The notes under the pieces were generated by a model. The model was not told the origin of the DNA. It saw only the letters and a list, made by a program, of their open reading frames with translations, and ran no database searches. From Carcharhinus longimanus (Eukaryota), in NCBI GenBank assembly GCA_030264375.1, contig JASCQW010000148.1:12815648-12879647 (forward strand): a stretch of DNA of 64,000 nt, read 5' to 3'. Both the position numbers and the translations under genes were made by a program. Numbering within the stretch: the stretch's first letter is position 1; the number at the start of each line of letters is the position of its first letter. Shown in pieces: positions 6,053 through 49,126 of the stretch.

Positions 6053-6925
6053 AACCAAAAGAGAAAATGCTGGAAAATCTCAGCAGGTCTGGCAGCATCT
6101 GTAAGGAGAGAAAAGAGCTAACACTTCAAGTCCTTTGTCAAAGCTAAAAGGCATAGAAAGTGGGAGATATTTATACTGCAGGATGAGGAAATGAAAGATG
6201 AGTCATAGTCACAGAAACCAGGGGAAAAGGCTACCAATGGCAGTCCACAAAGAGAATAAAGGGTGTGAATGGCCGAACAGCAGAAAAGCTGTAAGCTGTG
6301 ACAGATGAAGATATTGGGGGTGGGGAGATGGGGGGAGAGTTGGNNNNNNNNNNNNNNNNNNNNNNNNNNNNNNNNNNNNNNNNNNNNNNNNNNNNNNNNN
6401 NNNNNNNNNNNNNNNNNNNNNNNNNNNNNNNNNNNNNNNNNNNNNNNNNNNNNNNNNNNNNNNNNNNNNNNNNNNNNNNNNNNNNNNNNNNNNNNNNNNN
6501 NNNNGTGGGGTAGAGCAAATCATCTGAAGTCGCTCAATTCGATGTTGAGACCCGGAAAGCTGCAAAGTGCCTAGCCGGAAGATGAGATGCTGTTCCTCCA
6601 GTTTGCGTAAAGCTTCACTGGAACATTGCAGCAAGCCAAGGACAGACATGTAGGCATGGGAGCAGGTTCGTGTGTTAAAATGGCAAGCAACCGGAAGGTC
6701 AGGGTCCTGATTGCACATAGAAGGAAGGTGCTCAGCAAAGCAATCACCCAGTCTATGCTTGGTCTCTCCAATATAGAGGAGACCACATTGAGAGCAACAA
6801 ATGCAATACACCAAATTGAAAGAGTTGCAAGCAAAACGCTGCTTAACCTGAAATCAATGTTTTGGACCTTGGATGGTAAGCATTGAAGAGGCAAAGGGAC
6901 AGGTATTACACTTTCTGCAATTTTC
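6053..6925 (-). mobile_element. Penelope-like retroelement 3' fragment with GIY-YIG endonuclease
   Basis: ORF 6209-6814: VYCICCSQCGLLYIGETKHRLGDCFAEHL...PVACHFN...RKLEEQHLIFRLGTLQ; contains an assembly gap. Confidence 0.92.
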
Positions 6926-9499
6926 TCTCTTGTTGGAATCTCTCATTGGAAATTCATTGCCCAGCACTTGTGTGATGTGAATGTTACTAAGCACTTATCA
7001 GCCCAAGCTTGAATGTTTTTCGGGTCTCATTGCACTTGGGCACGGACCTGTGTATTTGAGGCATTGCGAATTATGCTGAACTTTGTGCACTCATCAGTGA
7101 GCCTCCCCACTTCTGGTCATTGATGAAGCAGCTGAAGATGCTTGAGTCCAGGACACTTCCTTGAGGAACTCCTGCAGCGATGTCCCGGATTGACCTGATT
7201 GACCTCCAACAATCACAGCCATCTTGCTTTATACTATCTTCCTGTCTATGTCATTCAGTATAGGTATTGTGTAAATGTACGGAGCCTTTGGGATTATAAT
7301 CCATTTTTTCCCAAATTCTGATTTGGGAATAATTCAGAAAGCTTTCATTGTAAAAGTGAAATTATAAAGAAATATTTGTGATACTGATGAACAATATATC
7401 ATTGTTCTGTCCTGTTTGGATAATGACACTTTGTGAACTGCTAAAAATAAAAAAGATACTGACTAATGGCACTTATGCTTGCGATTTTCTCTGAGTGGCA
7501 AGTCCTCATGTTACCTATTTATAATGACAGCTAGTTGATGGGTACCTGTTATACTTAATATGATCTGGACGATGCCAAGCAGACACTGTCACAGTATTTA
7601 GAGCCTGGACTGTTCTGACTGGTTACATTGTACGAGGTTCTCAAATTTCTCACAATGAATCCTTCTAATCCAAAAACAAAATAATAGGTTGAAAAGTAGT
7701 AATAATAGGATATTAAAAATAGGTTCAGACTATGACAAGTTACTTATTATTAATTTTTCATGGATAATATTCTATTTGATACATTTTGCCTTTGACCCTC
7801 ATAAAAAAGGACATTTTTATTCCATCCTTTTTTTCAGGATCAGACACAGATTTATTCTCTCCCTGATGCCTGCAGTGTTCAGATCTGGGAGGGTCAGGGA
7901 GGTGGGAAGAGTACAATAATAGATAAGATAGGGGCTCCCCTGGGACTTGTCCACCGCACACTCTATCCATCAGCCGCCTCTTTCTCTTACCAAGGTCAAC
8001 ACTAATGAGGATGAGCCAGGGTCTCAGCCCCACGGGATCCTCCAATCAGCTCCCAGCAACATTCACACGCTTGCACTTACAAGGAACCGCTTGCATACGA
8101 CAGAGATTGTGACAGAAAACAGCAGCCAAATCACGTACTTAAGAAATGGCAGTGTTTCTCCACACAACTGCACAAGTTCACACTGGTGAGTTTAAAAGAG
8201 GGAAAAAATATGACAATTCTGCCTAATACCATTGAATACCTAATTATGTCAGAACCTTGCTTTCAAATGGCCATTGATAGACTCATCAGTAATGCACTAC
8301 CATCAATTCCACTTCACTGAGATCTTGTGTGAAGTTTATCATATCTTTGAGAGACAAAATGTCACACAAACAAGCTGCAGCCTTACATTGGTCATTCTCT
8401 GTTGTACTAACAGCAAATGCAAAAAGCTAGAAGTAAATTTGCTCAGATATGGAATTATCATAACTGAAGCACTGTAGATTGGCAGGTAAGGTGTACAGAA
8501 AACTGGCTGTGGATTGCACTTGCTAGAGGAAATGCATTCCAGCCTTTTTGCCCAATATTGAGCGTTTAATAACTCCCACGGATAGTATTTTATTTTAATA
8601 ATCAGAAATATTTCAAACAAATGTTGCTGCTCTTAAAAAAATTACATTAAAGAAGATGTGTTGGAGGAAACTTAACAGTGTAGCAGTTTGAGCTACCATG
8701 AATAATAGCAGCTTTTTTGATTTCTGATTTGAAACATGATAACCACTTGAATAACAAAAGTAAGTGGTAGTACAAGGGGGAGAAATAATGACAGTGCCAA
8801 GAACTGATGCAATATATCCAAAGCTGTGCCAGGTAATTACAAACTTGCAGCAAACCGACTGTCCATTTATACCACACCACAAATTATGCCTTTCTTAATG
8901 GGCATCATTGGAAAAATTACCTTAAAGGACATGATATTCATGAAAGTTTTGGAAGGACAATATCAGCTTCCTGCATGTATGCAGGTGGCACCTAGCGTGA
9001 CCTCATTGCCTCTTCCATTGATGCAAAGTTTGTTACCACTTTCTTAAAATGCCTGCCTAATTTCAAGATTTTAAGCAAAACTCCTCAAGTTGAATATTGG
9101 CAAGACCATGGCTCATCTTTTTGCCTCCCGTCCCTTTTGACTTCAATTCAGTCAATCTCCAAACTGCCTTCTCAAGCAGAGCTTAAAGCCTTCGCATAAT
9201 GCACAACTCAGAGCTCAGCAATTCCTACATGATCAAAATTGCCAACTTTCAGCACTGCAATACTTTCCAACTCTGCCTTCTGGTGGCAGAACTCCATCCA
9301 CACTTTCAATATCTCACAACTTTACACATCTTCAATATCCTGCTATGTGGTCTCTAAGCACAGTTCCTTGAGCCCTTACTGCCATTCAGTGATATCATAG
9401 CTAATCAGTGACCTAAGCCCATATACCTGGCTTTGCCCCATATCTCTTGTTAGATTTGCTTAACAAAAATCTATCAGTCTGAGATTTAATTTTATCTGT

Positions 9500-9745
9500 T
9501 CGTAACTTTGGTGTCATGTTTTATCTGAGATGAGCTTCCAACCTCATATTCATGTCACCTCGAAGACCACCTTTTCACACCTTTGTAAAATTGAGTAAAT
9601 TCATCTATCTCAGCTGACTTGTTGCTGAAAACTTCATCCATGCCTTTGCACCTATAGATTTGACTATTCCAAGACTGACTGGTCTCTCATGTTCTACTCT
9701 ATGTAAACTTGAGGCCACCAGAAATTCTGCTACCCATATTTTAAG
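9500..9745 (+). mobile_element. Old L2-type LINE fragment
   Basis: tgctgaaaacttcatccatgcctttgcacctatagatttgactattccaa encodes the decayed 'LIHAFV.SRLDY.N' motif of L2/CR1-group ORF2. Confidence 0.6.
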
Positions 9746-10021
9746 CTAATTTCCTAACCAGTTCAATAATTTGCCATCAAATCCATCAGCTTCAACTTTA
9801 GCGAACAGTCTCTTATAATGGACTTACTCAAATGCTTCTGAAAGTGCAAATAAATAACATCCATTGGCATTCTCCTGTCCATTATTTTAATTATTTCTTC
9901 AAAAATTTGAATCAGTTTTGTCAATCATAGCCTGCCCATTACAAATCTAGGTTAGCTCTTTCTGATCTTCTGAAATTTTAAAGTGTTCACTCAGTCCATC
10001 CTTAACTATGGACTCTTAATA

Positions 10022-10365
10022 ATTTCCTTATAGTATATGATATAGAACATAGAACATAGAACATAGAACATTACAGCGCAGAACAGGCCCTTCGGCCCAC
10101 GATGTTGCGCCGNNNNNNNNNNNNNNNNNNNNNNNNNNNNNNNNNNNNNNNNNNNNNNNNNNNNNNNNNNNNNNNNNNNNNNNNNNNNNNNNNNNNNNNN
10201 NNNNNNNNNNNNCTTTTAGCCCTTCTCAACTCACTCTTCAACTCCCTCCTAGCCAATCTAAAGCTTTCTAGTGCACTATCTGAGCCCTCTAATCTCATCC
10301 GAACATAAGCCTCCTTTTTCTTTTTAACCATCGACTCAACTCTTTTAGTGCACCACGGTTCCCTA
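10022..10365 (-). mobile_element. Young CR1 LINE fragment with (agaacat)n tail, gap-containing
   Basis: (agaacat) tandem tail at 10024-10051; peptide VKKKKEAYVRMRLEGSDSALESFRLARRELKSELRRAK. Confidence 0.8.
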
Positions 10366-10689
10366 GGTTAATCAGTCTATTATTCCATGCTTTCTCTCTC
10401 TTGCCTTTCTTTACTAGCAAAGTAGTGTCAAATTTTCCAGTCCAAGGGAATGATTCCTGAATTGAAAGATCCTGGTTAGTATATCTACAATGTTCTTAGA
10501 TGCTTCCTTGAGAACATTGGGATGAAAACCATCTGGTTCTGAGGACTTATCACTCTTTCGTGCCATTATTTTCTTAATTGCTGTTAATTCATTTACATTA
10601 TCAATGGACTGGTCATGTGGGAAGATCCTAGCCTGTCAGATGATAACATCACCCCCCCATCCGAGGTGTCAGTTGACTGAACCTGTTCT

Positions 10690-13600
10690 ACTTCTATATT
10701 CCATTCCTTTGCAACAAATGACAACATTTATTTTGCCTTCCTAATCACTTGCTGTACGTGCATACTAACTTTTCCTGATTCATGTACCAGGACACCCAGA
10801 TCTTTCTGTATCTCAGAATTCTGCAATCTTTCCCAATTTAAATAATATACATTTCTATTCATCCTGCAAAGTGGACAAGTTTGCATTTTCCTCCATTATA
10901 CTCCATCTGTCAAAGTTTAGTGTACGCACTTAATCTATCTATGACCCATTTTAGACTGTTTATGTCCTCTTCACATCTTACTTTCCTTCCTATCATCGAC
11001 AAATTTATCAACCATACATTTGGACCCTTCATCCACATCCACAGATTGTAAATAGTTGAGGCGCCAGCACTGATCCCTGTGGCACTCTCATTTGTCACGT
11101 ATTGCCAACCTGAAAATGACCCATTTATTCCTACTGTCTGCTTTCTGCTAGCTAACTAATATGTTACCTCTTACACCATGAGCTTTTATTTTCCACAGTA
11201 ATATCTGATATGGTACCTGGTCATATGCCTTCTGAAATTCTAAGTACAACACATCGACAGGTTCCCCTTCATCTATGTTGCTTGTTACTTCCTCAGAAAA
11301 ATTCCAAAAATTAGTCAAACATGATTTCCCATTCACAAAACAACACTGACTCTGTTTGATTGCATTGAGATTTGCTGTGTGGCTTGCTGTAAGTTCTTAA
11401 TAATAGCTTACAACAATTTCCCTATGACAGGTGTTAAGCTAACTGGCCTGTAGTTTCCTGCCTTTATAGATTCATAGATTATTACAGCACAGAAGGAGGC
11501 CATTTGGCCTATTATGTCATGCCAGTCAACAAAGATCTGACTACACTAATCCCATTTTCCAATGCTTGGCCCATAATCCTAGAGGTTATGTCAACACAAG
11601 TGAATATCTAAACATTTCTTAAATGTTACAAGTTTCTGACTCAACCATCCTTGCAGGCAGTGAGTTCCAAACTCCCACCACCTGCTGAGTGAAAACCTCA
11701 GCTCCTCTCTTAGCCTTCAATCCTGGTTATAGATCCCTCAACTAATGGAAAAGGTTCCTTCCTATTCGCCCTTCTTCTCACCCTCACAATCATATGCACT
11801 TCTCTCAGGTTCCCTCTCAACCTTCACTGCTCCAAAGAAAACAGCCCCAGTCTACTCAATTATCAGACCCTCCAACCCAGTTAGGATCCTAGTAAATCTC
11901 ATCTGGTGTAATACTTCCTTCCTTTAATGCGGTGGCCAGAACAGCATGCAGTCCTCCAGTTTTGGCCTAACCAGCGTTTTGTAAATTCCAGCATGTCCTC
12001 TCTGTTCTTGTATTCAGTGCCACAGCTGATAAAGGCAAATATCTCATTTGCTTTCTTAACTTTCTTATCTGTCTGCCGTGCCACCTTCAGGGATGTGTGG
12101 ATATGCACAGCAGGGTCCCTCTGACCTTCAGTATTTTCTAGGGTTCTACCATTCATTGTATCATCCTTTGCCTTGTTAGCCCTTCCCAAGTGCATTACAT
12201 CACACTTTTCTGGGTTGAATTCCATTTTCCACTGCTCCTCCCACCTGACCAGTCCATGGATATCCTCCTGCAGTCTATGACTATCCTCCTCACTGTTTAC
12301 TACCCTACCAATTTTTGTGTCATCCATAAAATTTTTTATCATACCCCCTACATTTAAGTCTAAATTATTAGTGTATATCACAAATAGCAATGGCCCCAGC
12401 ATCGAGCCCTGCAGCACCCCACTAGAAGCAGACTTCTAGTCACAGAAGCATCCCTCTGCTTCCTGCCTCTCATCAATGTGTGACTTTGGATCCCATGGGC
12501 CCTTACTTTCTTATTCAGTCTGCCATGAGGGACTTTTTCAAAAGCCTTGCTAAAGTCCATATAGAACACATCAAATGCATTACCCTCATCAACACTTTCT
12601 TCAAAAAATATATTAGATTTGTCAAACGCAACCTTCCCTTAAGAAAGCCATGCTCACTATCCCTGGTAAATCCATATCCATCCAAGTGTAAAAATATTCT
12701 GTCCATCAGAATTCTTTCTAGTAACTTCCCCACCACCGAGGTTAGGCAAATTGGCCTATATATTTTTATCCATCTCTATATCCCATTTTTAATAATGAGG
12801 CAATGTTAGCAATCATCCAGTCCCCTGGTATCTTACGTATAGCCAGAGAGGATTGAAAATTACTGCCAGTGCCTCTGATATCATCTCCCTTAACAATCTG
12901 GGATACACCTATTCCGGGCCTGCAAATGTATCCACTTTAAAGGCTGCAAACCTGCTGGTACCTCCTCTCTTTCTATGTTAATTTCCTCTAACATTTCACA
13001 GTCCTCCACCCTAATGTTTACACCTATGTCATCCTTTTCCATTGTGAAGAGTGGCACAAAGTATTAATTGAGCACAGTACCCATGTCATCAGGATCCACA
13101 CACACATTACCTGCCTGTATGCTTCCTGATTGGCTTTACTCTTTCCCAAGTTATCTTGCTCTTACATATATATTTTGTAAAAGTCTTCTTCATTTCTTGA
13201 ATAGAGGAGTCACATTCACTACTTTCCAATCTGATGGGACCATTCCAGAATTTAGGGAATTTTGGAAAATTTGCTATCTCTGCGGCCACTTCGTTTCAGA
13301 CCCTAGGATAAAGTGCATCAGGACTTGTCAGAGTTTAGTTCTCATCATTTTCTCAATACCCTTTTCCTATGATTGTAATTGTTTCAAGCTCTTCCCTCCC
13401 TTTCACCTCCTGATTCACAATTATTTCTGGGATGTTATTTGTATCCTGTACAGTGACGACAGATGCAAAATATCTGTTCAATCCATCTGTCATTTCCTTA
13501 TTTTCCATTATTAATTCCCTATTCTGTCTCTCTGGAGGATCAATGCTCATGTTACTTACTCTTTCCCCTTTTAAATACTTATAAACTCAGAACTCTTACA

Positions 13601-14860
13601 ATCGGTTTTTATATTTCTAGCTGGTTTTTTCCATACTCTAATTTCTCCCTCCTTATTAACCTTTTAACGATTATTTGCTAAACTTCATATTCTGCCCAAT
13701 CTTCTCACCTGATACTCAACTTTGTGGTATTCTATGCATTTTCTTTCAATTTGGTACTATATTCAACTTCTTTAGTTAGCTACTTGCTGAAATGCATCTT
13801 TTCTCAGTATTTTGAAATATCTCCTTAAATATCTACCACTGCAACTCTACTGATGTATCCCTTAACATAATTTCCCAGTTCACATTAGCCAGTTCAGTAT
13901 TTATGCCATCATAATTGCCCTTACTTAAGTTTAAAACACTAGCCTTAAATCCACTCATCTCATCACTCAAACTAATTATGGAATTCAATCATATTATGAT
14001 CATTGCTACCTAGAGGCACCTTCACCAACGGTCATTAATTAATTCTGCCTCGTTGCACATTACCAGGTGCAATGTAGTCTCCTCTCTGGTTAGTGCTATA
14101 ATGTGGGCTCTAAGAAAATATCCCAAAAACATTCTACAAACTCATCATCCAGGTTTGGACAGTGAGAGCCTTTTACCTTGGATGGTGATGGCTAACACAA
14201 GGGGACATAGCTTTAAATTAAGGGGTGGTAATNNNNNNNNNNNNNNNNNNNNNNNNNNNNNNNNNNNNNNNNNNNNNNNNNNNNNNNNNNNNNNNNNNNN
14301 NNNNNNNNNNNNNNNNNNNNNNNNNNNNNNNNTAGATTGGTTCCACTGGTCGGCGCAACATTGAGGGCCGAAGGGCCTGTACTGCGCTGTAATGTTCTAT
14401 GTTCTATGTAGGTTACCTCTGCCAACCTGATTTGTCCAATCTATATGTAGATTTAAATCACCCATGATTATCTTTGTTCCTTTCATACAAGCCCTCAATA
14501 TTTCTTCCTGTATCCTTGTCCTACAGGAGGCCTATAAACCACTCCCACAAGTGACTTCTTATCTTTACTATTTCACATCTCTACCCAATCTAATTCTACA
14601 TCTTGATCTCTAGAACTAAGATCATCTCTCTCTATTGTGCCAATGTCATTATTATTTAATAGAGCTAGTCCTTTTCCTAGCTCCCCATTCTTCCTAAATG
14701 TCACATACCCTTGAATATTCAGGTCTATTCCTTTGTCATCCTGCAGCCAGGTCTCCGTAATGTCTGTCAAATCATACAGATTTAGTTCTATTTGTGTTGT
14801 CAATCCATCTGTCTGTTTTACTTTTTTTGTAATTTCTACTCTTATCTCGTGGTGCACTCA
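10690..14860 (-). mobile_element. Decayed CR1 LINE ORF2 (endonuclease + RT) with nested insertions
   Basis: Endonuclease motif YDLTDITETWLQDD (14573-14857); RT motifs GKSCLTNFWNFSEEVTSNIDEGEPVDVLYLEFQKAYDQVPY (11148-11336). Confidence 0.9.
11466..13185 (-). mobile_element. Nested second CR1 LINE (RT to 3' end) inserted in the older CR1
   Basis: ORF fragments YMDFSKAFEKVPHGRL, QGSMLGPLLFVIYTNNLD..FMDDTKIG..FNPEKCDVMHLG; own 3' tail at about 11466; the outer element is interrupted at about 11460 and resumes at about 13185. Confidence 0.85.
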
Positions 14861-15112
14861 TAGGTTTGTACACTCTGTTCCTTCCTCCCACACACTGTGC
14901 ATCATTTCTCTGATTCCTCCCATTCTCTTTTGCCTTGTCTTCCCAACTCATTTATCACATCTTCTCAAACTTGATTCCTTGCCCCCACTTTTTTGCACTC
15001 TTGTTATATGACTTGCTGGAACATTCATCCTAACATGGTTCATCTGAACACTGTACCAAAGTTATAACTTCCACTTTCTCCAGACTGGTGCCAGCGCTCC
15101 ATGAATCAAAAC

Positions 15113-15905
15113 TCATTTCTCCCAAACCAACCTTTGAGCCATGCATTTTACTCTAATCTGAAGTGCATTATGCCAATTTGCTTGTGGCTCAGGTAGTAAT
15201 CCAGAGATTATTACCTTTGAGAATCTGCTTTTTAATGTAGCCCCTAGCTGCTGACACACCCTCAGCAGGACCTCTTTCGTAGTTCTACCTATGTCCTTGA
15301 TATACAACCATTGGATCCTTCCCCTCCCGTTGCAACCATAACCACTGGATTCTCCACCTCCCCAGCCCAGACAACATATTCTGAACCCTGTCACTGGGCA
15401 GCCAACACAGCCGTCTGGGCTCCCACTCTCAGCTCCAGAGAATGTGTCAATCCCCCTGACCATACTGTCCCCAACTACCACTATATTACGATTAAGTCCC
15501 CCCACTTGAATGGTTTTCTGTACCATGGTCAGTTTGCTCATCCACGCTGAAGCAACCAGTTTCATCTACACAGGCTGCAAGATTTGTTGGACAATTACAA
15601 AGGCGGAGGCTGCTTCATTTCTATCAACTGCATCCCCATACTTGCCTCATTCACAGTCACACCCTCCTTTCCTGACCACTGACCAAATTAGAAGACCTAG
15701 TCTGAGGGATGTGACTGCCTCCTAGTACAAAGTGTCCAGGTAACTTTCTCCCTTCCTTATGCATTATAGTATCTGCAGTTCAGCATCCAGCTCAATGACT
15801 CAGAGTAGAAACTCCACAGACAAATACTGCAGATGTATTTGACTTGGATCACCTTAGTGTTCAGGAATTCTATTCTGCAGTTGGAACACATCACCTGCCC
15901 TGCAA
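15113..15905 (-). mobile_element. CR1 LINE ORF1 remnant (Cys-rich N-terminus + SGNH esterase domain)
   Basis: VVVGDSMVRGID (GDSL-like block) in ORF 15113-15565; manual translation AGQVMCSNCR...YICSICL near 15800-15900. Confidence 0.85.
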
Positions 15906-16089
15906 TTAGTTAATTAATTTATAAGTAATAAACACTGCTTCTCCCAATAACCTTTACTATTGCTAGTAAACCTTACTACAACTCAAAAAATCCTTTCAAT
16001 CACTAATAAGTTACACACATTTTGAAGATAAACAAACCAAATAATCACCACTTATCTAATATCTTCCCCTAATATAATTGTAAAAGATT

Positions 16090-16485
16090 GTGTTGATTTT
16101 GATATACCTTGCAAGTTTCTTTTCATATTCCCTCTTTGTAGTTTGTTTTTACTTCACCCATTGCTGCTTCTTGTCTCTCTCCAATTTGCCAAGGTCTTTT
16201 TTTTCCATCTTTGTATGCTCTTTCTTTCAATTTTATGTTGTCCCTAACCTCTTTAGTTGTCTGTTTTTCTTGACAAGTGAGGTACTTGTCCCTTAGCAGG
16301 ATAACCTGGTTCTGTAGCACATTAAATTCCCTTTTGAGCATCTCTCATTGATCTTCTGTCATTTTATCCCTGGATATATTTGTTCAGTTTACTGTAGAAT
16401 GTCTCTATCTCATTCTGTTGAAGTCGGCTTTATCTAAATCTAGAAGCTTAGTTGTTGCGTTGTGTTTCTGAGTTCCAAACGTAAC
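16090..16485 (-). mobile_element. CR1 LINE ORF2 fragment
   Basis: Decayed linker peptide MLKREFNVLQNQVILLRDK..IKLKERAYK; LINE-like sequence continues after the insertion at about 17450. Confidence 0.65.
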
Positions 16486-16486
16486 A

Positions 16487-17450
16487 GCCTGGATTCTTCC
16501 AAAAAAAACTAAGTGCCCAACAGGCAGGAAGACTGGAAATTTGCCTGCCCGTATTTTGGGTGTACTTAGTTTCACGAATCCCTGGCACTTACGCAGGAAA
16601 GGAGGGGCGGGCTTAATCCCATTGGAGAGGCCGATAGCATAGTGTTGAGCAGGCCACTGCGATGCACGGATTTGTCAGTGTAGAGATCAGTGCATGCATA
16701 CTGGCCCCACCCATTGCCAGCCTCCTGATCGCTGGCCTTCCGACATCTTCCCAATCAAACTCCCCAACCACCCTCCCCTCTGATTGCCAGCCGACCTACA
16801 CATTCCACCAATCATCAGCCTACCCAAACCCTCCCCACCGTGATCCTGATCGCAGGCCTACCCAACCCCCTTCCCTACCCTGATCGCTGGTCCAGCCCCA
16901 ACCCCCATGGCTTGCCCTGATCACCTCCTCCCTCCCAACCCCATCGATGCCATTGCAGCGTGTGAAGCAGGGCCCCCCCACCCCACTGGTCGCACCACCC
17001 AGTAGTCCCTGCCCTGCAGTAGGCTCTACCCCCTCTGGCCCTGCCTCCAGTGCCTCGTGGGCAGTGCCAGTGTGCATCTTGGGCAATGCCTGAGTGCCAC
17101 AGTGGTGGGGGGGGGTGCCTCAATGGCCTCTGTCCCCACCAGCGGGGTGAGCACACCTGATCCTATTGGTCAAGAGCAGTTGTAAATCACGCTGGTGGGA
17201 ATCTCTCCCAGTTGCTTGGTGTGGGGGGAAGTTACTCGCGGGCCCTGAACCTACTATCCCAGGCTTGCTAGTCATATGGAAATGACAATTTCTGTATAGT
17301 AATCAGCCCCGCGCTGGTCTCCAAAAAAATGGGCCTGGGAAACTCGCAATCAGCCACACGCTGGTCATGAGTCCTACCACAGGCCCCCACTGATGGCTCC
17401 CGGCCTGTTGTGCTACTCAAGCAGTACAGCTGGCTGGCAGAATCCCAGCA
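16487..17450. mobile_element. Non-autonomous Harbinger-type DNA element
   Basis: Imperfect TIRs gcctggattcttcc / ggcagaatcccagc; flanked by aca...aca 3-bp direct repeat; GC-rich, C-skewed interior; no coding motif. Confidence 0.7.
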
Positions 17451-17669
17451 ACATTTAATTCAATCATATTATGGTCAATATTAGTTAATTGTTAGCCTGT
17501 TTACCAAATATAGTCATTACACGTCACTAAATCAATAGTCTGCCGCCTTGTTGGTCCTAGAATATGTTCTTGCAAAAACCTAACCTGAACACACTCAGGA
17601 TATCTGCTACCTTTCTGTATGAGTATTCACCTTCTATAAGTTCCAGCTTATCCAACATACTTAGCACAA

Positions 17670-18090
17670 ACTCTCAGCCATATAAATCCCATTTCCATTC
17701 TCTTCAACTCCACCGACATCCCTTGTGTGTCAATTCCAAAATTCTTCTCTTTGTTTTCAAATCATGTCAAAGCCCCACTGCATTTGTGATTCCTTCCTAT
17801 TTTACAACTTGTATGCAGCCCTGCTCCTCCATCACTGGATGTCTCGTCAATTCTCCTCCTTCCAGTGCACTACTGCTAACTGCACCTTTGGACTTTCCAA
17901 TTGTTCTTTTTGGAATTCCCTACCAAATCCTCTCTTGCCACTTCCTGCTTTCAGAAACATCCTGAAAATCTTCCACTTTGACCATGGTTTTTTTCCCCCT
18001 AGTCTTTACATTTCTCTCCATCTTTCCCTTCATTGCAACTTTTCCTCCTTTTGGTAAAGTGCTTAAAGGTACTTCCATCCATGTGAAGAA
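17670..18090 (+). mobile_element. L2-type LINE 3' end
   Basis: caattccaaaattcttctctttgttttcaaatc ... tttggaattccctaccaaatcctctc ... gtaaagtgctt; a similar copy lies at about 40620-40990. Confidence 0.6.
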
Positions 18091-21844: not shown

Positions 21845-22413
21845 TCTGCTATAGAGCTCGTGTATGAGATGGTTGAGGAATGCGAAAGAGTTACGATGGC
21901 AAAGTCTCTCAGCGTAGCCTGTATTATAGGTTTACCTGAGTGGGTTCGTGATCTGTCGTCCTTTTGGTATCTTGTCTGCTTTCTTGCATCTTTGTCGAAA
22001 CTTGATGTCTGTGTCGATATGCGNNNNNNNNNNNNNNNNNNNNNNNNNNNNNNNNNNNNNNNNNNNNNNNNNNNNNNNNNNNNNNNNNNNNNNNNNNNNN
22101 NNNNNNNNNNNNNNNNNNNNNNNATGCGCAATCTGCTTGGAGATCCTCTCCACTTTGAGCCAGCCGCTTGCAGTGTCTTTGGCAGCCATGATGTGGAGAT
22201 GCCAGTGTTGGACTGGAGTAAGCAATCTCACAACACCAGGTTAAAGTCCAACACGTTTATTTGGTAGCACAAGCTTTCAGAGTGTTGCCCTTCACCTGAT
22301 GAAGGGGCAACATTTCGAAAGCTTGTGCTACCAAATAAACCTGTTTGACTTTAACGTGATGTTGTGAGATTACTTACTGTGCTAACCCTAGTCCAACGCC
22401 GGCATCTCCACAT
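21845..22413 (-). mobile_element. Penelope-like element 5' fragment with palindromic terminal repeat
   Basis: About 220-bp imperfect palindrome at 22191-22413, then minus-strand ORF start MAAKDTASGWLKVERISKQIAH/IDTDIKFRQRCKKADKIPKGRQITNPLR. Confidence 0.75.
22293..22327 (+). ncRNA. Minimal type I hammerhead ribozyme-like motif (Penelope-associated, degenerate)
   Basis: cac-CTGATGA-aggggcaacatttc-GAAA-gc-TT-gtg: both core boxes present, stem I cac/gtg, weak stem II, palindromic aagctt in place of stem III. Confidence 0.6.
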
Positions 22414-29530: not shown

Positions 29531-30815
29531 GGCCCAGATTTTTGCTGAGGTAGAGAGTCTCAATTGTGGCAAAAATAGCAGAAATAGCTGACAATCTTAA
29601 GACCTGCTCCTGAACATGCAACTTCCTGTTCGAGCAGATGCAGGACTGGAGTCCAGCTGAGCTTCACACATGCAAATTTTGTGGAGGTAGCTAGCCATTC
29701 AAATAAACAGCTGCCTCCACTGAAGTGGGATTTTGGTAGGCTAGGAGGTTAAAATCTAGTGTGTACAGATTAGACCAGGTAAGAGCAAGTCTGAACCTGG
29801 TGATTTGTTTGGCTAGCCAGGGTACCCCTTTGGAGAGGTAAGTTACCCCTTTGGATATATTCCTGGGACACCTTCGGAAGAGGTAAGGCACCCTTTGGAA
29901 CAGGTAGGGCACTCTTTTGAATTGATAAAATAAACATGATTGTGTATAAAAAGTGCATAAACTCAATGGAACGGTTAATGCTGTCAAAGAACTGTCAAAA
30001 CTCATTGGGACAGTCAAAACTGTCAAAGAACCATCAAACCTCATTGGAACTGTCAAAAAATTCATTGGAAATGTCAAAGTTGTCAATGGACTTAACTCTG
30101 GGTTTTAAACTGAAAAGAAACTATCAGGAGTTCATAAAAAGTCAATGCTTAATATTTCATTGTGATGGATATTTCATGAGCCTGATGGTTATCATTATAG
30201 GATTTGTACTGCAAAGACTGATTATCCAAAGTAACATTATCATAGTAGGGTGTTTGTTAGGTAAGCAACTTGATTGACAGCTTCAAGTGGTTAAATGATT
30301 GTTTGTTTGTTTTGTAAGAGATCAGTTGAATGAATTTCTATGTATTGAATGGTTTTTAATCAATGAGTTTTTTTGTTTAAAAATGTCATCAATAGAACAT
30401 AATTTTATTTTGTGTCAACATGTCTCCAGCTTGTTGCCATGAAATGGGGCAATATGGGCAAAAATGGTAGGTGGGGGCATGGATTGGCATGAGTTGGCAC
30501 TGTTGACATGGGGGCTATAAAGGCCCATGGGGATTTGGGGAACATAAATGTGTATGAGTGACCATGGGGGAGTTGGGAAGGCATGAGGTGATATAAGTTG
30601 GCATGGTTGGGGCATGGGACATGTGTAGGGAGTGAGAAGGGTGAGGGTTGCTCTTTGTTTTAGTAATTTTTTTAATGAATTGAACAAAATACTAGAGCAG
30701 AAACGCAAGCCTTCCATCTAACCTGTCTGTGCACTAGCCAGTCTCCTCACTGATTACAAGGACAGCAGGCCCGGCTTTTAATTCAGACCATCCTTTTGGA
30801 ATGAAAATTGGAACC
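29531..30815. mobile_element. Probable non-autonomous Harbinger-type element containing internal minisatellites
   Basis: TIR-like ends ggcccagattttt / gaaaattggaacc; internal repeats of about 21 bp (29820-29918) and about 39 bp (29962-30090). Confidence 0.5.
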
Positions 30816-36781: not shown

Positions 36782-36923
36782 ATGGTTGGGGAAATGGAAA
36801 ATAAGGAGCGACCAAAACCCACTCCAGACTATCTCATGCAACTGATGAACGACAAGAAGCTGATGAGTAGCCTGCCCAACTTCTGCGGCATTTTCAATCA
36901 TTTGGAGAGGTTACTGGACGAAG
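36782..36923 (+). CDS. QKI: KH domain RNA-binding protein quaking (QKI), coding exon 1 (QUA1 dimerisation domain); remaining exons lie beyond the window
   Basis: [47 protein letters not shown] is nearly identical to the vertebrate QKI N-terminus; 142-nt coding exon ending at AAG|gtatgt (phase 1 donor). Confidence 0.98.
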
Positions 36924-41000: not shown

Positions 41001-44000
41001 TCAGGCATAAATTGCATATTGCTGCTGTTATCCATTTTTTGTTTTCTTCTAACCATAGTGGGATGTAAGGGAGGAGGATAATATGATTCACATGGCATAA
41101 TAGTGTATTTATAGGTTAAGTAAAGTACCTATTCACAGCTGATAGTGTATTGTTTATATTCCCTTGCTGTGATTTGCTGTCAAAGCCAGCAAAGTTCTGT
41201 GTATGTGTACTTACAGGGGTGCATGGATTTTAAATATATTGCAAACATGAGAGAATATACACTTGATATATTTATGTAATCTTTGGGTATCTTTGTAACT
41301 TATCTAGGAATTATGGAGTGCTTAATTCAGTTTATGTTGCACAGTGTGGTGTCGAACCCGGCAGTGTAACAGGCTAGATGAACAAGTGAGGTTTTTTCCT
41401 GTCTGTTTTTGTATGTCAGTATAAATAGGCTCTTTAGTATGATTCAGGGTCAGTTTACATTGCTTCTGGAGTAACAAGATAATCTGTATTTATGCTTCAC
41501 ATGCATTAAATTTTCAGGAAAAAAAACCTCAGTAATGTATTGATGACTGCAAATTGGTGTACTATTTCATTCCAGCACTAACTGTAAGATGTGTAGCTTA
41601 AAATCCTGATGCATTTGATTTGGTTTTATTTGCTTTGTATATAGGGACCATAGGTTAGGGCGAGATCTGGAGCAATATTATGATGCATTTACATGTTCTA
41701 GTTTATACTTTTTTAGGATGCAGAGTAAACCAGAAGGAAACAGTAGTAGTTGAATTAAAAAGGGCGAAAAAACTGCATTCCAACCTGGCTTTCATTATTT
41801 ACAAGAAAATGTAATCTTGTTAATGTATACGGAATGCAGCAAGCCTCGCAGTCTGGCACAGATCCAAATTGACTGAAATGTTATGTAGTTTCCCCTTTAT
41901 TTTGCAATTTATTTAATCAACTTTAAGAATTTGATGTATTTTGAAGAAACAGTATGTTATTTAACTTAAGTTTTTGAGAATTTTCTGGCATCAAATGAGG
42001 TTGGTTTATTTAATTATCAGAATGTTTATGGTAGCTTTGAATGTATTCAGTATTCTGAGTAACTGAACTCCTGATATGATATCAAACTATTTTCCATTTG
42101 TAACCATTTCACAACTTCCCAAATAACTGTAGGAAAAAATAACCTTTTTCTCCATTTATGCAAGTATTAAATGATAATTTTGAATATCAAAATAATTCTA
42201 CACTGAATATGATTTACATTAATACAAAATTCATTAGAGTATTTTTTTCTGCCGAAAACTTAAATTCATTTAGGTACGTTGCTTCATAATGCAAAGCAAA
42301 AGCAGCTTGAAACCCAATGCACCATGTGTGAAATATTATAGACTGATTTTGTTAAAATCTACAGCATACATTCATTGCACAAATTTAAAGGGACAGAATG
42401 GGAAGAAAATAGACAGGGGAAACTCAAAAATAAAAACAAGAATCTTCAAAATTGTTGTCATTGGAATATGCTTTGAAGGAAACAAGCTGTGTCCAAGCCC
42501 CATTCAAAATATCTCAGCACGTTACATTTTTCAATTCCTAGGACACCTAGTATGTACGTGCCCCATTAGCATATGTCAGTAATCATTTTACAAGTTGCCT
42601 GTCAGCCCAAGGCTGTTCTACCAGGTAAAGTCAAGGAAAGAACACGACCCTTCAATGTTCAGCAGATTGTGTGAATCACTGGAGATCTAAGGGGGCAGCT
42701 TACACAGTACTCAATCCCTCACCCTCTCTATCTATTTTATTGCCTTTCTGAGAATTTCAAAACTTCTGGGATACAATCATCTACATTTCTTAATGATGGT
42801 TCTTAGGTTTATCCTACATAAAAGCAGATGGTAACAATGCCAGTGATAAAGAATGAGTTTGGCCTTTTTAAAGATCAGGCTTGAATGCACGCAATATCAT
42901 AGTGCCACTGCTAAACTGTGGATTCCTGAATTAATAAATATGCGACAGAAACATGCAGCTACATCACCAACGTGGCTGCAATGAAATTCAGTACCTTACC
43001 AGATTAATGGGGAAAAAAAGTACTGAACAGCTTGGCTGGTGAAGCACTTTGAAACACCAGTGTACTGCACTAAGGTGGTGTCACATGAGTCAGTCTTTCC
43101 TCGACGAAGCTAAGATTTCAGTTTCAGCTGCACCACTGTAGTGGGCCTAATGGAGGTCAACTGGGAAAGGAAAGAAAAATCAGAAGCCAAATTCTTGGCT
43201 AGTCATCATTGTGGAGGCATTAGTCCGGGTCATTCACTCACCCTATTTACTGAAGTTATTGTATCTTGCACAAAAATGGAGTAAGGAACAAAGTAATGCA
43301 GAAAAGCTTAAGCCACAAAGTAATTCAGAAAATAGGAAAATAATGTATATTTACAAATTAAACAACCAAAATCAAAATAGATTTTCAAAATTCTGTCTCG
43401 CCAACATTAAGTTACTACAGTTTTGTGAATTATTCAAAACTAAAAACTGAACTCAGAAGGTTACATGAATCCATCAAATGTCACTTTGAACTGCAATTTT
43501 TGGAATTTTCTCAAAGAGGAACTTCAGCTGGTCGGCTCCAAGAAATTGTTAAAGCTTGTCTATAGCCCTATGACTACTGATTGTAAAACAAAAAAAATCA
43601 TCGTTAAAAAATGGATCATTTTCTAAGCAGCACATCCCTCCATGTGAGAAGCATTTATTATGTGAATAGTGAGCCTGTGATTTAATTAATGGTGACACAG
43701 TCAAACAACATATTCAGTCCCTTCCTCCAGACAATGACATTTCACAAGATTAGTCATCTCTCTGTTCCATGATTACACACGCAATTCAACAACTATTACC
43801 AGTCACATTTATCTATTAAATATGGAATTATTTATTCGTGACATATCCTGCTTCCAATTCAGTTTTATTTTTCCTGAATTACTTTAATGTTCAATAACTA
43901 GAAATCAGATTTAATATTTTACTGAAATAACCAGACCTGTTAAGACAAGCACCATTTTCATTAGAATAGAGCTAAGATAAATGGTGCCATTAGTTAAAAA

Positions 44001-44269
44001 TCAAGATTTACATCTCAAATCAAGTCATTGAAAACTGCCATTCACTTTTGTTACAAATTTCTGCTGACTTAATTAATTGCACAATAGCTGTAGAGACAAC
44101 ATAAAATGTAATTGTCAAGATTAAACTTGTATTATTCAAGAATGGAGCAATTCGAATTGTCTGTGATCACAATGTGACTGCCTCGCAAACATCATTCGAT
44201 TTGATAAGTCTTTGATCCAGAATACAATAAGCCTTACTAATGTGCTGCACCAGAGCAATAGGACCATTG

Positions 44270-44890
44270 CTTATTTCCTGATTGCCACATATGAACAACA
44301 GCAACAGATAAGAATAAGGGGTATGGAATTAATGAATTATAAATTGGTTGGAAGAGCGGAAACAGAATAGGAGTTAAGGGCAGTTTCTCAGAGTAGCTAG
44401 AACTGGGTAACAGCATCCATTCTGTGATCATTTCATCTCACAATACAGGTCAATGATTTGGATATGGAGCTAGAGGGAGTGGTGCCAACATTGCAAACAA
44501 AATTAAAATAGGAGGGGCGATCGGAAAACATGCATTATTTTGGGCTTCACAATATGGTAAACATGTTGGGGCCATAGAGACATTACAGCTCGGATTAACT
44601 AGGATGCTGCCTGATATGAAGGCAATTTTTAAAAATGGAACTGTTTTCATTAAAACAGAGGAGATTAGGGATGATTTAATAGAGATGTTTAATATTTTGA
44701 GGTACTGGAACAGTTTAGGTAGAAATGAACTGTTTACAGTGAATGAAGGACTGAGAACAAGAAATCATAGATAGAAGATTTAATGTAAAAATTTCAGGAG
44801 CAGATGAAAGTCTTTTACATGTAAGATTGTTGAATGCACCAGAGTTAGAGATTGAAGCAGAGCCCATGGGATGGATTTTCAGTTGAAGGT
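44270..44890 (+). mobile_element. Highly decayed CR1 LINE fragment
   Basis: Residual RT and C-terminal motifs (ggagattagggatgatttaatagagatgtttaa = RL.DDLIEMF). Confidence 0.6.
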
Positions 44891-45749
44891 TCAGAATAAC
44901 GTGTCACAACCTGCAAGGTGTATTTCAAAACGCCTGTCCAGATTTTTAAAGGACCAGACCAATGAAGGACAGTGGACTAGCTCCATAGCCTTGAAGTCAG
45001 TAGCTCCACTGAACAAGGTGGGAGCTGCCAATCCTGATGGAGAGAAAGAGGACATGTCTTTCTTAGAATTTTCCTTTTCTGATTTTAAAGTCTGGTTTTG
45101 TTCTTCCACACTGCGCATCTCATCTTTCATGGTCTGCAGATTGGATCAAAGTTCAAGAATTTCATTGCTCTTTTCTTAGTGCTTAAAAAGATACTTCTCA
45201 TAGTTGAAGTTCAAATCCTAATTTTTCATTAGCAACCTCATCTTGCAGATGTGAAAGTTAGTTTGCTACACTAGAGGGCTTTTCCTTAGCAGAGCCTAAT
45301 TCTTGTGTACTATCCTTCAACCTCACATCCTTTAATTTTACTTCTGCTATTTGTTTCTGACACTTTTTTATGTTCCTTTGGGAGAACTTCTACTTTCTCT
45401 TGCAACCATTCAACTTTTTCTAGACATTCTAGTTCTTGATTTTCATTTCAGCCATGTCAATTATCAACAACTCAATGGTTCTCAATGCATTTGAGGTATC
45501 CAGTGATTTACCTTCTAGTTCCTTGAGTTTCTACATTGGATTTACATTTTCCTGTCGTACCTTTCTCTGTCTGCAGCAGAGCTTTATCCTTGTCTTTCAT
45601 TTTAGTTTACTGGAGACAAACTTGGCCAACAGTAAAATTTTTAACTTGTTTCAGTTCTTTAATCGTGCTGTTTATGGCTTCATTAAGTGCTTCGCAGCTT
45701 GGAAACCTCTTTTCCATTGTCCCATCCAGAAGACAGGAAGGAAAATTCC

Positions 45750-47353
45750 TGTTACTTTCCAAAATTATTTTATTTAGATAATTGACAAAAACTTTACCCT
45801 GACATGTTGGACTAGCCATGACTTATAGCAGAGGCATTTCTAACCTTCAGAAACCAGCTGGGACCTTGTTACCTCTAAAGATACACTAATGCTTCCTGTG
45901 ACAACAGAGAATCAAATTCCAGAGAAATACATCCTTTACATTTCTAAGACAGAGCTCTAGCCAACAGAGGTGGTGGCCAAAATTTTATGCTCCCCCTGGT
46001 GGGTTCTCAGGTGAGGGGGAAGAGTATGAAAATACATGCATGGGATTTCCCCCAAGATCCCACCTACCTGACCTGGGCATATTATGCCAGTTCAGGCAGG
46101 GTCTTGGATGAGATGTCTACCCATACCCCAATTGAAGCCCTTAAGTGGCCCTAATATTTAAGCTAGTAAGCAGATGAAAGAACAGATGAAATTGCACAAA
46201 ATTTGATCTTGGGCAGGAATGGGGGGTGTGGGGTGGGGGAGCAGAGGCTCCATTAGAAGCCCCCTTCTACTGATGCCACCCTCGCCTTGGGGACTGGAGA
46301 CCTCCGGACCTCCATCTCCCCCTAACCTATCACCTGACAACCCAATCGCCCCCTTGTGACACCCAAGGCCTCCCATTTCCCCCACTTGACCACTGCAATT
46401 TACCTGGTAGCTGGCTGCAGTGCCTCTTCTGGCCACTGCAGTGCTGCTCTTGGAAAGACTGGAGAAGAGTCAACCAATGAGGTTAGCTGGCAGCTTACCA
46501 AGATGGGATTTTCTCCCAGTGATGGGCAGAATTCCCGCCTTCTGCCAGTCAAAGCTCTTTAGAGCCTGAAATGTGTCTTGATCACCTGCCTTCCTGAAAA
46601 CTCAGACCAATATGTCTGCAAGGACAAAAGAGACACTGACTCCTCTCAATACCTCGAGATTCCAGACCTGGAAAAATACCTCCTTTGTCCAAAACCCAGG
46701 ACAAGAAGTGGGAGATATGTCACATGACCTCCCCAAGTTGCTAGAATATTGACATATGGAATCAAACTCAAGCAGTCTAGCAGTTTACCACCTACCAGGT
46801 AGCAGCAGGAAGAGCTCTGTCCCGGGCCTGGGCCTGATCTGCATTATATATTATTGGGAACATCAGAACACTTATTAGACTAATTCATCTCAATGTACTT
46901 CTTCATCGGGAAGTCTTCACTTCTGGAAAGACGAATCACCCTGCAACAGTTTCTGCCTGCTAACCTCTGAAGGAATACACCATTGGACTTTTGATTCTGG
47001 ACTCACATAAAACCATAACTCTTATTTTTATTGTGGTCTTGCCCTTTAATCCTTTCTTTCCCTTATCCCTGTTATATTGAATGAGTGCAAAAGGGGCAGT
47101 CGTTGTGAACTCTCTTGCCGTATTTTGTTTTGTGTCTTCTAAAATAAGCTAACCCTCTTATTTTACCTTATCTCAAGTTTGCTGTGGGGTTATTATTAGA
47201 GCATTTAAGCACTCAAAACTGAAGGGCTGGGAAAAATATGCCACCATTAATGAAGAGAGAAATCAAAATTCAAAAACACTTTTCTGTTTGTGGACAGATA
47301 AGTGAGAGAAGAAATCAGGGCTATCTAAATTACCCCCTTCTATCCATAAACCA
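45750..47353 (+). mobile_element. Probable solo LTR (TG...CA) with a nested element
   Basis: Begins tgttac, ends ataaacca; flanks ttcc / ttca (4-bp TSD with one mismatch); interrupts the coiled-coil sequence cleanly. Confidence 0.55.
45975..46600. mobile_element. Non-autonomous Harbinger-type element nested in the LTR
   Basis: Starts ggccaaaatttta (TIR-like); GC-rich interior resembling other such elements in the window; right end unclear. Confidence 0.55.
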
Positions 47354-48344
47354 TTCAGATGGTTCTTCAGCTGTTCCTTGTACCTTATGGAATATTGAAT
47401 ATTCTGAATCATCTTTGCCAATTGTTTCTTCAATTCGTTCAGAGTGTCATTAAATTCATTTGTTCCTCTTTGTAATTTTTGAGAGGAACAAACTTTGACC
47501 TGAAGGATCTTTAGTATGTGCAGGTCCTTCAACAGGTTTCCTTTTTTTTTGCAAAGCTCAATTGCTTCATCTTGATTTTTCTTGTGATGCAATAGAATCT
47601 TGCGAGTTTCTTCTGCTCAAAACACTCTTCACTTCTTCGTGCTGCTGAACAGTCATGCACTCCTTTGCATTTGATCTTGAAGGATTATTAGTTGTTCTTT
47701 CAACTATTTATTTTCTTGTTGATTTCTTGCCAGCTCACACTGTGTTTCAGTACATTGTTTTGATGCTACTGGTAGTTTCAAAGCAGCTTCTTCTAAAGTA
47801 GTATTCAACATCTTTTTAGTTCCTCATGTTTATCTATGGACATGTATTGATTTTCAGTCTTTCAGAGCAGCAACTTCTTTGAGTACCTTTTTTGCCTGGT
47901 GTTGCACTTGGCTATAATTCTGGTTGAGTTCTTCCAATTCAGCATAGATACAAACATTTTCCTGTGAAGTACCTTCATTTTCTTTTTGCCAGTTTTGTTT
48001 CTTTTGGATTACCTCAGATAGCTTTTCTTCATTCACAGCCAGCTGCCCATTCCACTCTGCCATCTACACTTGGAGTGTGGGTAATGCATCAGCATTTTCA
48101 CACTGCTCTATTTTTAAAGTCTTTCGGCTGCTTCTCAACCCCATTTTCCTTCTGCACTAAACTCTTCAGCTCATGCACTTCATTGCACTGACATGATGTG
48201 CAATCATCTCTTAGCTTCCTTAGATATTGTTTCCCTCAGCCTGAGGTCTCCTGTCTCCCTCACTCGGGGGGGTCTCCCCATCTTTCCTGTGCTTTACTGA
48301 GGTATTCAAGACTTTATTTTAAGCTATGTGATCTCCACAGCTTG

Positions 48345-48890
48345 GGAGTTTGACAATATTTGTCGAAGGTGTTTAATATCTTATCAACTGTGGTTGAGGA
48401 TTCATCTTCATCTTATCGTAGAATAATGTCATTCAAAACTACATCAAACAAACATAAAAACATAATCGTTTGTATTTTTTCTGATTTCTTGCTTAATCCT
48501 AATATAATCCTGCAAAAAATAAATTTTCTTCTCCAAGACTCCCAATTTTGGGTCTGATTTAGTCCTTTCATTGGCCTAAACTTGTCTGATATTTTTAATT
48601 TACTATCCATGGATAGAATTTTTTTTATCTTCAAAATGGATTATTCTGTGATTCAGCCTATTTTCTTTTTGCTGAATTTTGCTCCACCTTTTGGTGATTT
48701 GGCTAAGTCTCTTGACTCTGCTTCTATGTTTCATCAGCTTCCAAGTCTGTAATTGTGATTTTCATTTTAGGCAATCTCCAACTGTGTCTTTGCGTTAGGT
48801 GCTCTTTGCTTAGGTTGGGACTCAGTTTCTTTATCTCGTGCTTTGAGATTCTGAATTCCTTCTCCAGCTTCTCTGAGATTTCAAGGTCCA
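48345..48890 (-). mobile_element. Decayed Gypsy-type gag N-terminal region
   Basis: QNWESWRRKFIFCRIILGLSKKSEKIQTIMFLCLFDVVLNDIILR*DEDESSTTVDKILNTFDKYC fits the recalled Ty3/Gypsy gag pattern W..W..RF..FR..SGL..K....Q...LL......DI......E.....D.....FD.Y; directly downstream of a PBS-like site. Confidence 0.7.
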
Positions 48891-49126
48891 TCCTTCACGG
48901 CCACCATATTGTAAGGTTGTTTGGTGCCTCACTAATAGGTCTGGAGATGTGTATGGTTGAACATGAACAGTTCATTGGTAACCCATAGCTAATACGTAGC
49001 CAAGGTACTGCCAAGTACTGGCTCCTTCCAATCTGTACACAGAATCTATCATCATGTGACTCTTTACATCATACCAAGAGTGGTACTGTTCTCCAATCTC
49101 ACATTATCACTTGATCTGACTGAACA
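48885..49126 (-). mobile_element. Gypsy-type 5' LTR (48910-49126) plus PBS-like site
   Basis: Minus strand TGTTCAGTCAG...CCTTACA, then ata-TGGTGGCCGTGAAGGATGG, resembling the complement of the initiator tRNA-Met 3' end (TGGTAGCAGAGGATGG). Confidence 0.65.

Follow-up and report, generated by a model that had tools for sequence, protein, structure and literature searches.

Structure of the locus

The window analysed here is a stretch of 64,000 nucleotides from Carcharhinus longimanus (assembly GCA_030264375.1, contig JASCQW010000148.1, positions 12,815,648 to 12,879,647), and all coordinates below refer to it. Between 49126 and 45053, on the minus strand, it contains the remains of a Ty3/Gypsy retrotransposon in which a fragment of gag is followed by coiled-coil sequence, derived in part from the host gene UACA. 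This gag-plus-host-gene chimera is real, but its UACA part is smaller and its cargo more mixed than the initial annotation described, and one dead copy is known. A long terminal repeat (LTR)-like segment, a primer binding site (PBS)-like sequence, gag and the UACA piece follow one another on one strand, and pol is absent. To this extent the initial proposal, that an LTR element had replaced its pol with a UACA segment, was upheld; it failed for the 3' part of the coiled coil, which is not detectably UACA.

The candidate 5' LTR (48910–49126, minus strand) is 217 bp long and bounded by TGT...ACA; since the window contains no other copy of it, its 5' boundary is likewise a candidate. Three nucleotides past its end, a TGG at 48906 opens the PBS-like site (48889–48906, minus strand), within which lies an ATG at 48891. 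These elements were all visible in the sequence as first annotated, and the PBS-like site may be a decayed tRNA-Arg(UCG) site. The layout ACA-N0-4-TGG-N8-16-ATG had 28 matches on the two strands of the window and is therefore weak alone. It gains weight because gag comes next, and because the best coding-like tract of the window, according to a composition model applied to both strands, begins precisely at 48891. The two best tracts of this kind in the 64 kb (48891–47362 and 45693–45053) correspond to the element on either side of a later insertion.

The truncated gag (48263–48598, minus strand) contains stop codons, lacks a zinc knuckle and probably represents the N-terminal, capsid-type part of the protein. 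Searched against 1.84 billion representatives, its X-read frame matched five proteins at E ≤ 1e-3, with 27–33% identity and a best score of 44 bits. The best match was a Gypsy gag-pol protein (E = 2.3e-6) with Retrotrans_gag, protease, reverse transcriptase, RNase H and integrase; identity to four gag fragments was 29–32%, and the alignments spanned 48598 to approximately 48263. The gag-like domain was thereby corroborated by protein matches; Pfam, the kind of profile check first suggested, gave no gag match on the window itself. A structure model was too poor to inform (predicted local distance difference test score 56, predicted template modelling score 0.36), the best fold match had Z = 4.5 with none at E ≤ 1e-3, and an Atlas search with the gag frame was uninformative (best 0.78). 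No remnant of zinc knuckle, protease or pol was detectable in 42900–45060 or in the later insertion (scores of 32–38, against 31–50 for reversed sequence).

Between the ATG and the gag core is an N-terminal extension of about 100 codons (48600–48891, minus strand), which is broken and weakly coiled-coil-like. Its coding-like score of 18.6 was matched by 5 of 200 shuffles, and an Atlas match of 0.89 is a lead only.

A further TG...CA segment (44820–45015, minus strand) starts 38 nt beyond the 3' end of the coiled coil. Its ends resemble the ends of the LTR candidate: the two segments agree at 15 of 16 terminal bases, and their first 8 and last 11 positions are almost the same. This was the top non-self score at its word length, but was tied at longer word lengths. 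The interiors are unrelated. Their score of 0 was attained by 17% of shuffles, while simulated LTR pairs at 0.15–0.30 divergence scored 79–195, and the segment was rejected as a 3' LTR on these grounds. No purine tract precedes it.

Origin of the coiled-coil cargo

The UACA-derived coiled coil (47354–48024, minus strand) joins amino acids 689–721 in frame to amino acids 811 to approximately 1020 (Mustelus numbering), and so represents an internal part of a donor protein of 1403 residues, truncated at both ends. The aligned path has six to seven frameshifts and one stop. When the frame 47383–48060 was searched, three proteins were found among 1599 candidates, all of them shark UACA (E = 7e-27 to 4e-19), and in tiled comparisons the signal was confined to 48024 to ~47355 (scores of 78–132, against 28–38 for the reversed profile). 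Frameshift-aware alignment to 19 named orthologues, leaving out 13 unnamed UACA-like matches whose N-termini were considered only as listed, showed that identity was greatest to Mustelus (64.5%), followed by Heterodontus (61.6%), Carcharodon (60.2%) and Scyliorhinus (58.6%); it was 51–54% for two carpet sharks, 54% for squalomorphs, 45–47% for rays and 31–33% for bony vertebrates. In two trees the piece nested among galeomorph sharks (support 95 and 94), on an end branch of 0.43. Approximately unbiased (AU) tests rejected its placement outside sharks (p = 0.022) and outside elasmobranchs (p = 0.044), with galeomorphs borderline (p = 0.051); the groups tested were defined with the first tree already known, and the branch in question is long. 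Sequence comparison thus indicates that 48024–47354 is of shark UACA origin. The piece retains 60–65% identity to chondrichthyan UACA (P0001, P0021, P0023) across about 183 aligned codons; unlike those proteins it has no ankyrin repeats and no C-terminus, and it is broken.

Within the piece, a deletion of 94 codons preserves the frame. It sits at a five-codon overlap between amino acids 717–721 and 811–815, such that position 47940 matches both amino acid 717 and amino acid 811. Neither poly(A) nor a target site duplication (TSD) belonging to the piece or the coil was found, although age could erase both, and no poly(A) was found around the element as a whole. An independent retrocopy of L1 type, which the initial annotation had raised as the contrary case, is not indicated, because the piece is internal and without its own poly(A). 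It probably lies within one large donor exon. Human UACA codon 1234 is placed in exon 16 by the available text of PMC12881209.

The extent of UACA sequence was less than the roughly 1.8 kb first claimed: the 671 bp of 48024–47354 were substantiated, while a UACA origin was not confirmed for 45749–45050, 48262–48025 and 48891–48600. Gag and the UACA piece are separated by 240 bp, comprising a linker (48025–48262, minus strand) that is neither gag nor UACA by test. Its gag score was 26 against a null of 27.5, and a gag domain reaching ~48140, apparent by eye, was accordingly not significant. As UACA, both linker and N-terminal extension scored at the level of reversed profiles or shuffles, with shark and with bony-vertebrate profiles.

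Beyond the later insertion is a second coding-like coiled-coil tract (45053–45749, minus strand) of about 213 codons, with five stops and four frame changes on its best path. Its coding-like score was 51.2, against 10.9 ± 3.3 for base-shuffled sequence (0 of 200 shuffles attained it); the UACA piece scored 58 (0 of 200). No relationship to UACA emerged, the tract scoring 46 against 47 for the reversed shark profile, and 44 against 42 with the bony-vertebrate profile, where the true piece scored 166. The Pfam matches were limited to generic coil families under the cut-off (best TPR_MLP1_2, E = 8e-4) and a PDB search gave nothing below E = 1.4, so that neither supplied a parent; the tract may resemble CENP-F. 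Since the tract is coding-like yet not detectably UACA, the simplest reading is that it derives from a second donor gene, and the cargo has the look of a mosaic.

The later insertion (45750–47353, plus strand) is a non-coding, solo-LTR-like segment of 1604 bp, bounded by TG...CA and flanked by a 4-bp repeat in which three of four bases match. Six-frame Pfam searches gave nothing below E = 0.26, and no copy was found elsewhere in the window. The region ~45985–46545 within it resembles a nested shark repeat of miniature inverted-repeat transposable element (MITE) type.

Decay and selection

The UACA piece was compared at 57 sites that are invariant in eight sharks and not close to breaks. It has changed at 15 of these, and only one change is radical. 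Neutral simulations passed through the same aligner produced 38–52% radical changes. Because real orthologues differ at 1–15% of such 'invariant' sites, the simulations were repeated in leave-one-out form, omitting the source species and counting the matched subset of 400 runs each; the observed mean BLOSUM score was attained in 9 of 182, 2 of 192, 0 of 152 and 1 of 216 matched runs. G-to-A hypermutation did not account for the conservative bias (no more than 1 of 182 runs attained it). Homopolymer errors were likewise rejected as the cause of the frameshifts, as run lengths at six breaks were 2–5, equal to background (mean 3). These comparisons provide modest evidence that the UACA piece passed through a translated phase after its split from UACA. 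The signal is compatible with constraint on the element, on a host chimera or on a donor duplicate alike.

The total divergence of the piece equals about 0.12–0.18 neutral changes per base, and the event is therefore old. Assuming a slow shark rate, we would place the capture in the order of 100 million years ago.

Origin of the chimera

The reading preferred here, to which a probability of about 0.5 is given, is that an LTR element captured host sequence by template switching into a gag-coil frame, which was translated for a time and later died. During reverse transcription in an ancestral shark, host coding sequence would have taken the place of the last part of gag and the whole of pol in a Ty3/Gypsy element. 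This sequence would have come from at least two donors: the middle coiled-coil region of UACA and a second coiled-coil gene. Capture at the RNA level would have created a single reading frame that began at the ATG in the PBS, crossed a fragment of capsid and continued as a long coiled coil, and this fusion may have been translated, and somewhat constrained, for a time. The product would most simply have been a non-autonomous element, mobilised by helper enzymes, with the Gag piece co-assembling with helper Gag and the coil acting as a tether. The present copy would have inserted antisense into intron 1 of a QKI-type gene (see below), died and received the later insertion, its 3' end being lost or made unrecognisable. 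The double truncation of the UACA piece and its lack of poly(A) fit the pattern of LTR-mediated retrocopies (Tan et al. 2016, PMC5131818).

Several results weigh against capture into a translated frame. No second copy of the LTR candidate was found in the window by blastn or Smith-Waterman alignment (best non-self score 63.5, against 434 for self); as first annotated, a 3' LTR was found by neither blastn nor local alignment, and no polypurine tract (PPT) or element TSD was found around the element. The initial suggestion of an in-frame gag-coil fusion was not borne out, as the gag core lies in a different frame from the ATG and the beginning of the UACA piece, which agree with each other. Protein searches produced no gag-UACA fusion: the best 120 of 654 near-length matches were UACA-type, with ankyrin repeats present in all except two (these being named UACA isoforms or partials), and 12 shorter UACA matches were without a gag domain as listed. 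The gag search likewise gave no close relative, nothing exceeding 33% identity, although repeat masking could hide a family. The stop deficit was not significant, as 17–54 of 152–216 runs had as few. The selection signal depends on 15–21 changes and on simulated codons, with orthologues varying at 1–15% of sites, and six frameshifts are at odds with so few radical changes. There was also no second copy of the element in the window; a multi-copy family, which gene predictors were initially expected to call 'UACA-like', is unsupported.

Many of these facts would suit a one-off copy, made by the same template switching but dead on arrival and neither selected nor amplified. Having no relatives in protein searches, no significant shortage of stops, and changes at 18 of 67 invariant sites, which equals neutral decay of 0.12–0.18 per base, such a copy would resemble the 14 of 21 older LTR-mediated retrocopies that have disabling changes, according to the available text of PMC5131818. 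It is nevertheless rather unlikely, given that the changes were conservatively biased under every mutation model tried, that the UACA deletion keeps the frame, and that a cargo from two sources points to repeated capture.

That the coil came instead from a diverged host duplicate, or from a DNA-level patch (a UACA paralogue, a mosaic gene or a repair insertion) inside a decayed Gypsy copy, is improbable. A constrained duplicate would yield the same conservative bias, the constraint then belonging to the donor gene; there are no paired LTRs and there is no evidence of intron loss, and the sequences tested did not include the paralogues RAI14, ANKRD24 and ANKRD35. However, each shark species in the matches listed has a single UACA-type gene, neither TSD nor poly(A) flanks the coil, and the coil lies in sense orientation right where gag stops. 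A domesticated single-copy host gene of capsid and coiled coil, on the design of Arc or PNMA, once working here and then lost in the lineage, would explain the conservative changes, and the absence of pol and a 3' LTR is usual in domesticated gag genes, but it is very unlikely, as no intact orthologue was found among predicted shark proteins and the LTR-like segment and PBS-like site are still there.

Comparison with known elements

LTR elements are known to capture host mRNA in animals, so that such an event does not in itself surprise; this locus is an unusual form of the process. As described in the available text of PMC5131818, LTR elements of fly, mosquito, zebrafish, chicken and mammals swap internal open reading frames (ORFs) for doubly truncated mRNA pieces at microsimilarities, and the resulting retrocopies sometimes have several parents and can be re-mobilised or constrained. 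The shark locus is alike in that a doubly truncated host piece, in sense and without poly(A), takes the place of internal ORFs, in its multi-parent cargo, and in its sign of constraint, as in their zebrafish and chicken cases. It differs in being old and without a recognisable 3' LTR, where those retrocopies are young with flanking LTR remnants; sharks are not among the species listed in the text available. L1 hallmarks are absent, and paired LTRs, PPT and TSD are absent also. The locus was not classified as an LTR-mediated retrocopy, because it has neither paired LTRs nor evidence of intron loss; the lack of paired LTRs lowers the case for membership, rather than for the mechanism, because later loss is possible.

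The gag homology is that of Ty3/Gypsy, although pol in the order protease, reverse transcriptase, RNase H, integrase is missing. Elements with the P0004 gag type, which we take to belong to a Mag/K02A2.6-like clade, share the N-terminal gag motifs and the order LTR-PBS-ATG-gag; the shark element departs from them in its ~100 additional codons ahead of the gag core, its shortened gag and its lack of pol. Host-type coding sequence inside Gypsy elements is also reported in the available texts on orchids, where an AlkB-like domain is kept (PMC9289625), and on bdelloid rotifers, where elements carry ORF3s (PMC5408684). Those are separate ORFs in elements with pol and with demonstrated families, while here the cargo directly follows gag, pol is gone and there is one dead copy. 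A literature search, excluding subscription journals, Repbase and Dfam, found no published report of a gag-UACA element.

A more ambitious reading, which is doubtful, is that repeated capture in a non-autonomous Gypsy lineage of sharks built a selected mosaic of Gag capsid and host coil (UACA and the second gene), which spread, the coil tethering or trafficking helper particles. Were this true, a vertebrate Gypsy lineage in which selection retained host coils fused to Gag would be a counterpart of retroviruses that transduce oncogenes and of plant elements with fixed extra domains. It would also illustrate a route by which capsid-plus-coil proteins can arise. The locus also adds sharks, and a much earlier date, to the known range of LTR-mediated capture. 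As it is one dead copy for which no family has emerged, it is a lead.

Genomic setting

The first coding exon of a STAR-domain gene (STAR_dimer, E = 1.5e-15 in Pfam), which we take to be QKI, occupies 36782–36923 on the plus strand, inside a GC-rich island and with a GT donor at its end. No exon-2 motif of this gene was found in the 64-kb window, so intron 1 extends beyond the window end and the element is placed antisense within it.

Rfam and tRNA gene searches of the window gave no matches. Short interspersed element (SINE)-like sequences recur across it, as in vertebrate DNA. A decayed Harbinger-type transposase remnant lies at 869–1548 on the plus strand (DDE_Tnp_4, E = 0.008, below the cut-off), and a frame at 6209–6853 on the minus strand, crossing an N gap and without a Pfam match at E = 0.01, resembles the terminal endonuclease part of Penelope-like elements. 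The region 9000–18000 (minus strand) has a long, strong GC skew and includes the remnant of a long interspersed element (LINE) reverse transcriptase at 11899–12435 (RVT_1, E = 1.2e-8). Degenerate tandem repeats with a period of 19–39 bp occupy 29871–30078, and an inverted repeat of 74 bp at 22217–22378, 89% complementary with a loop of 14 nt, is probably two repeat copies arranged head-to-head.

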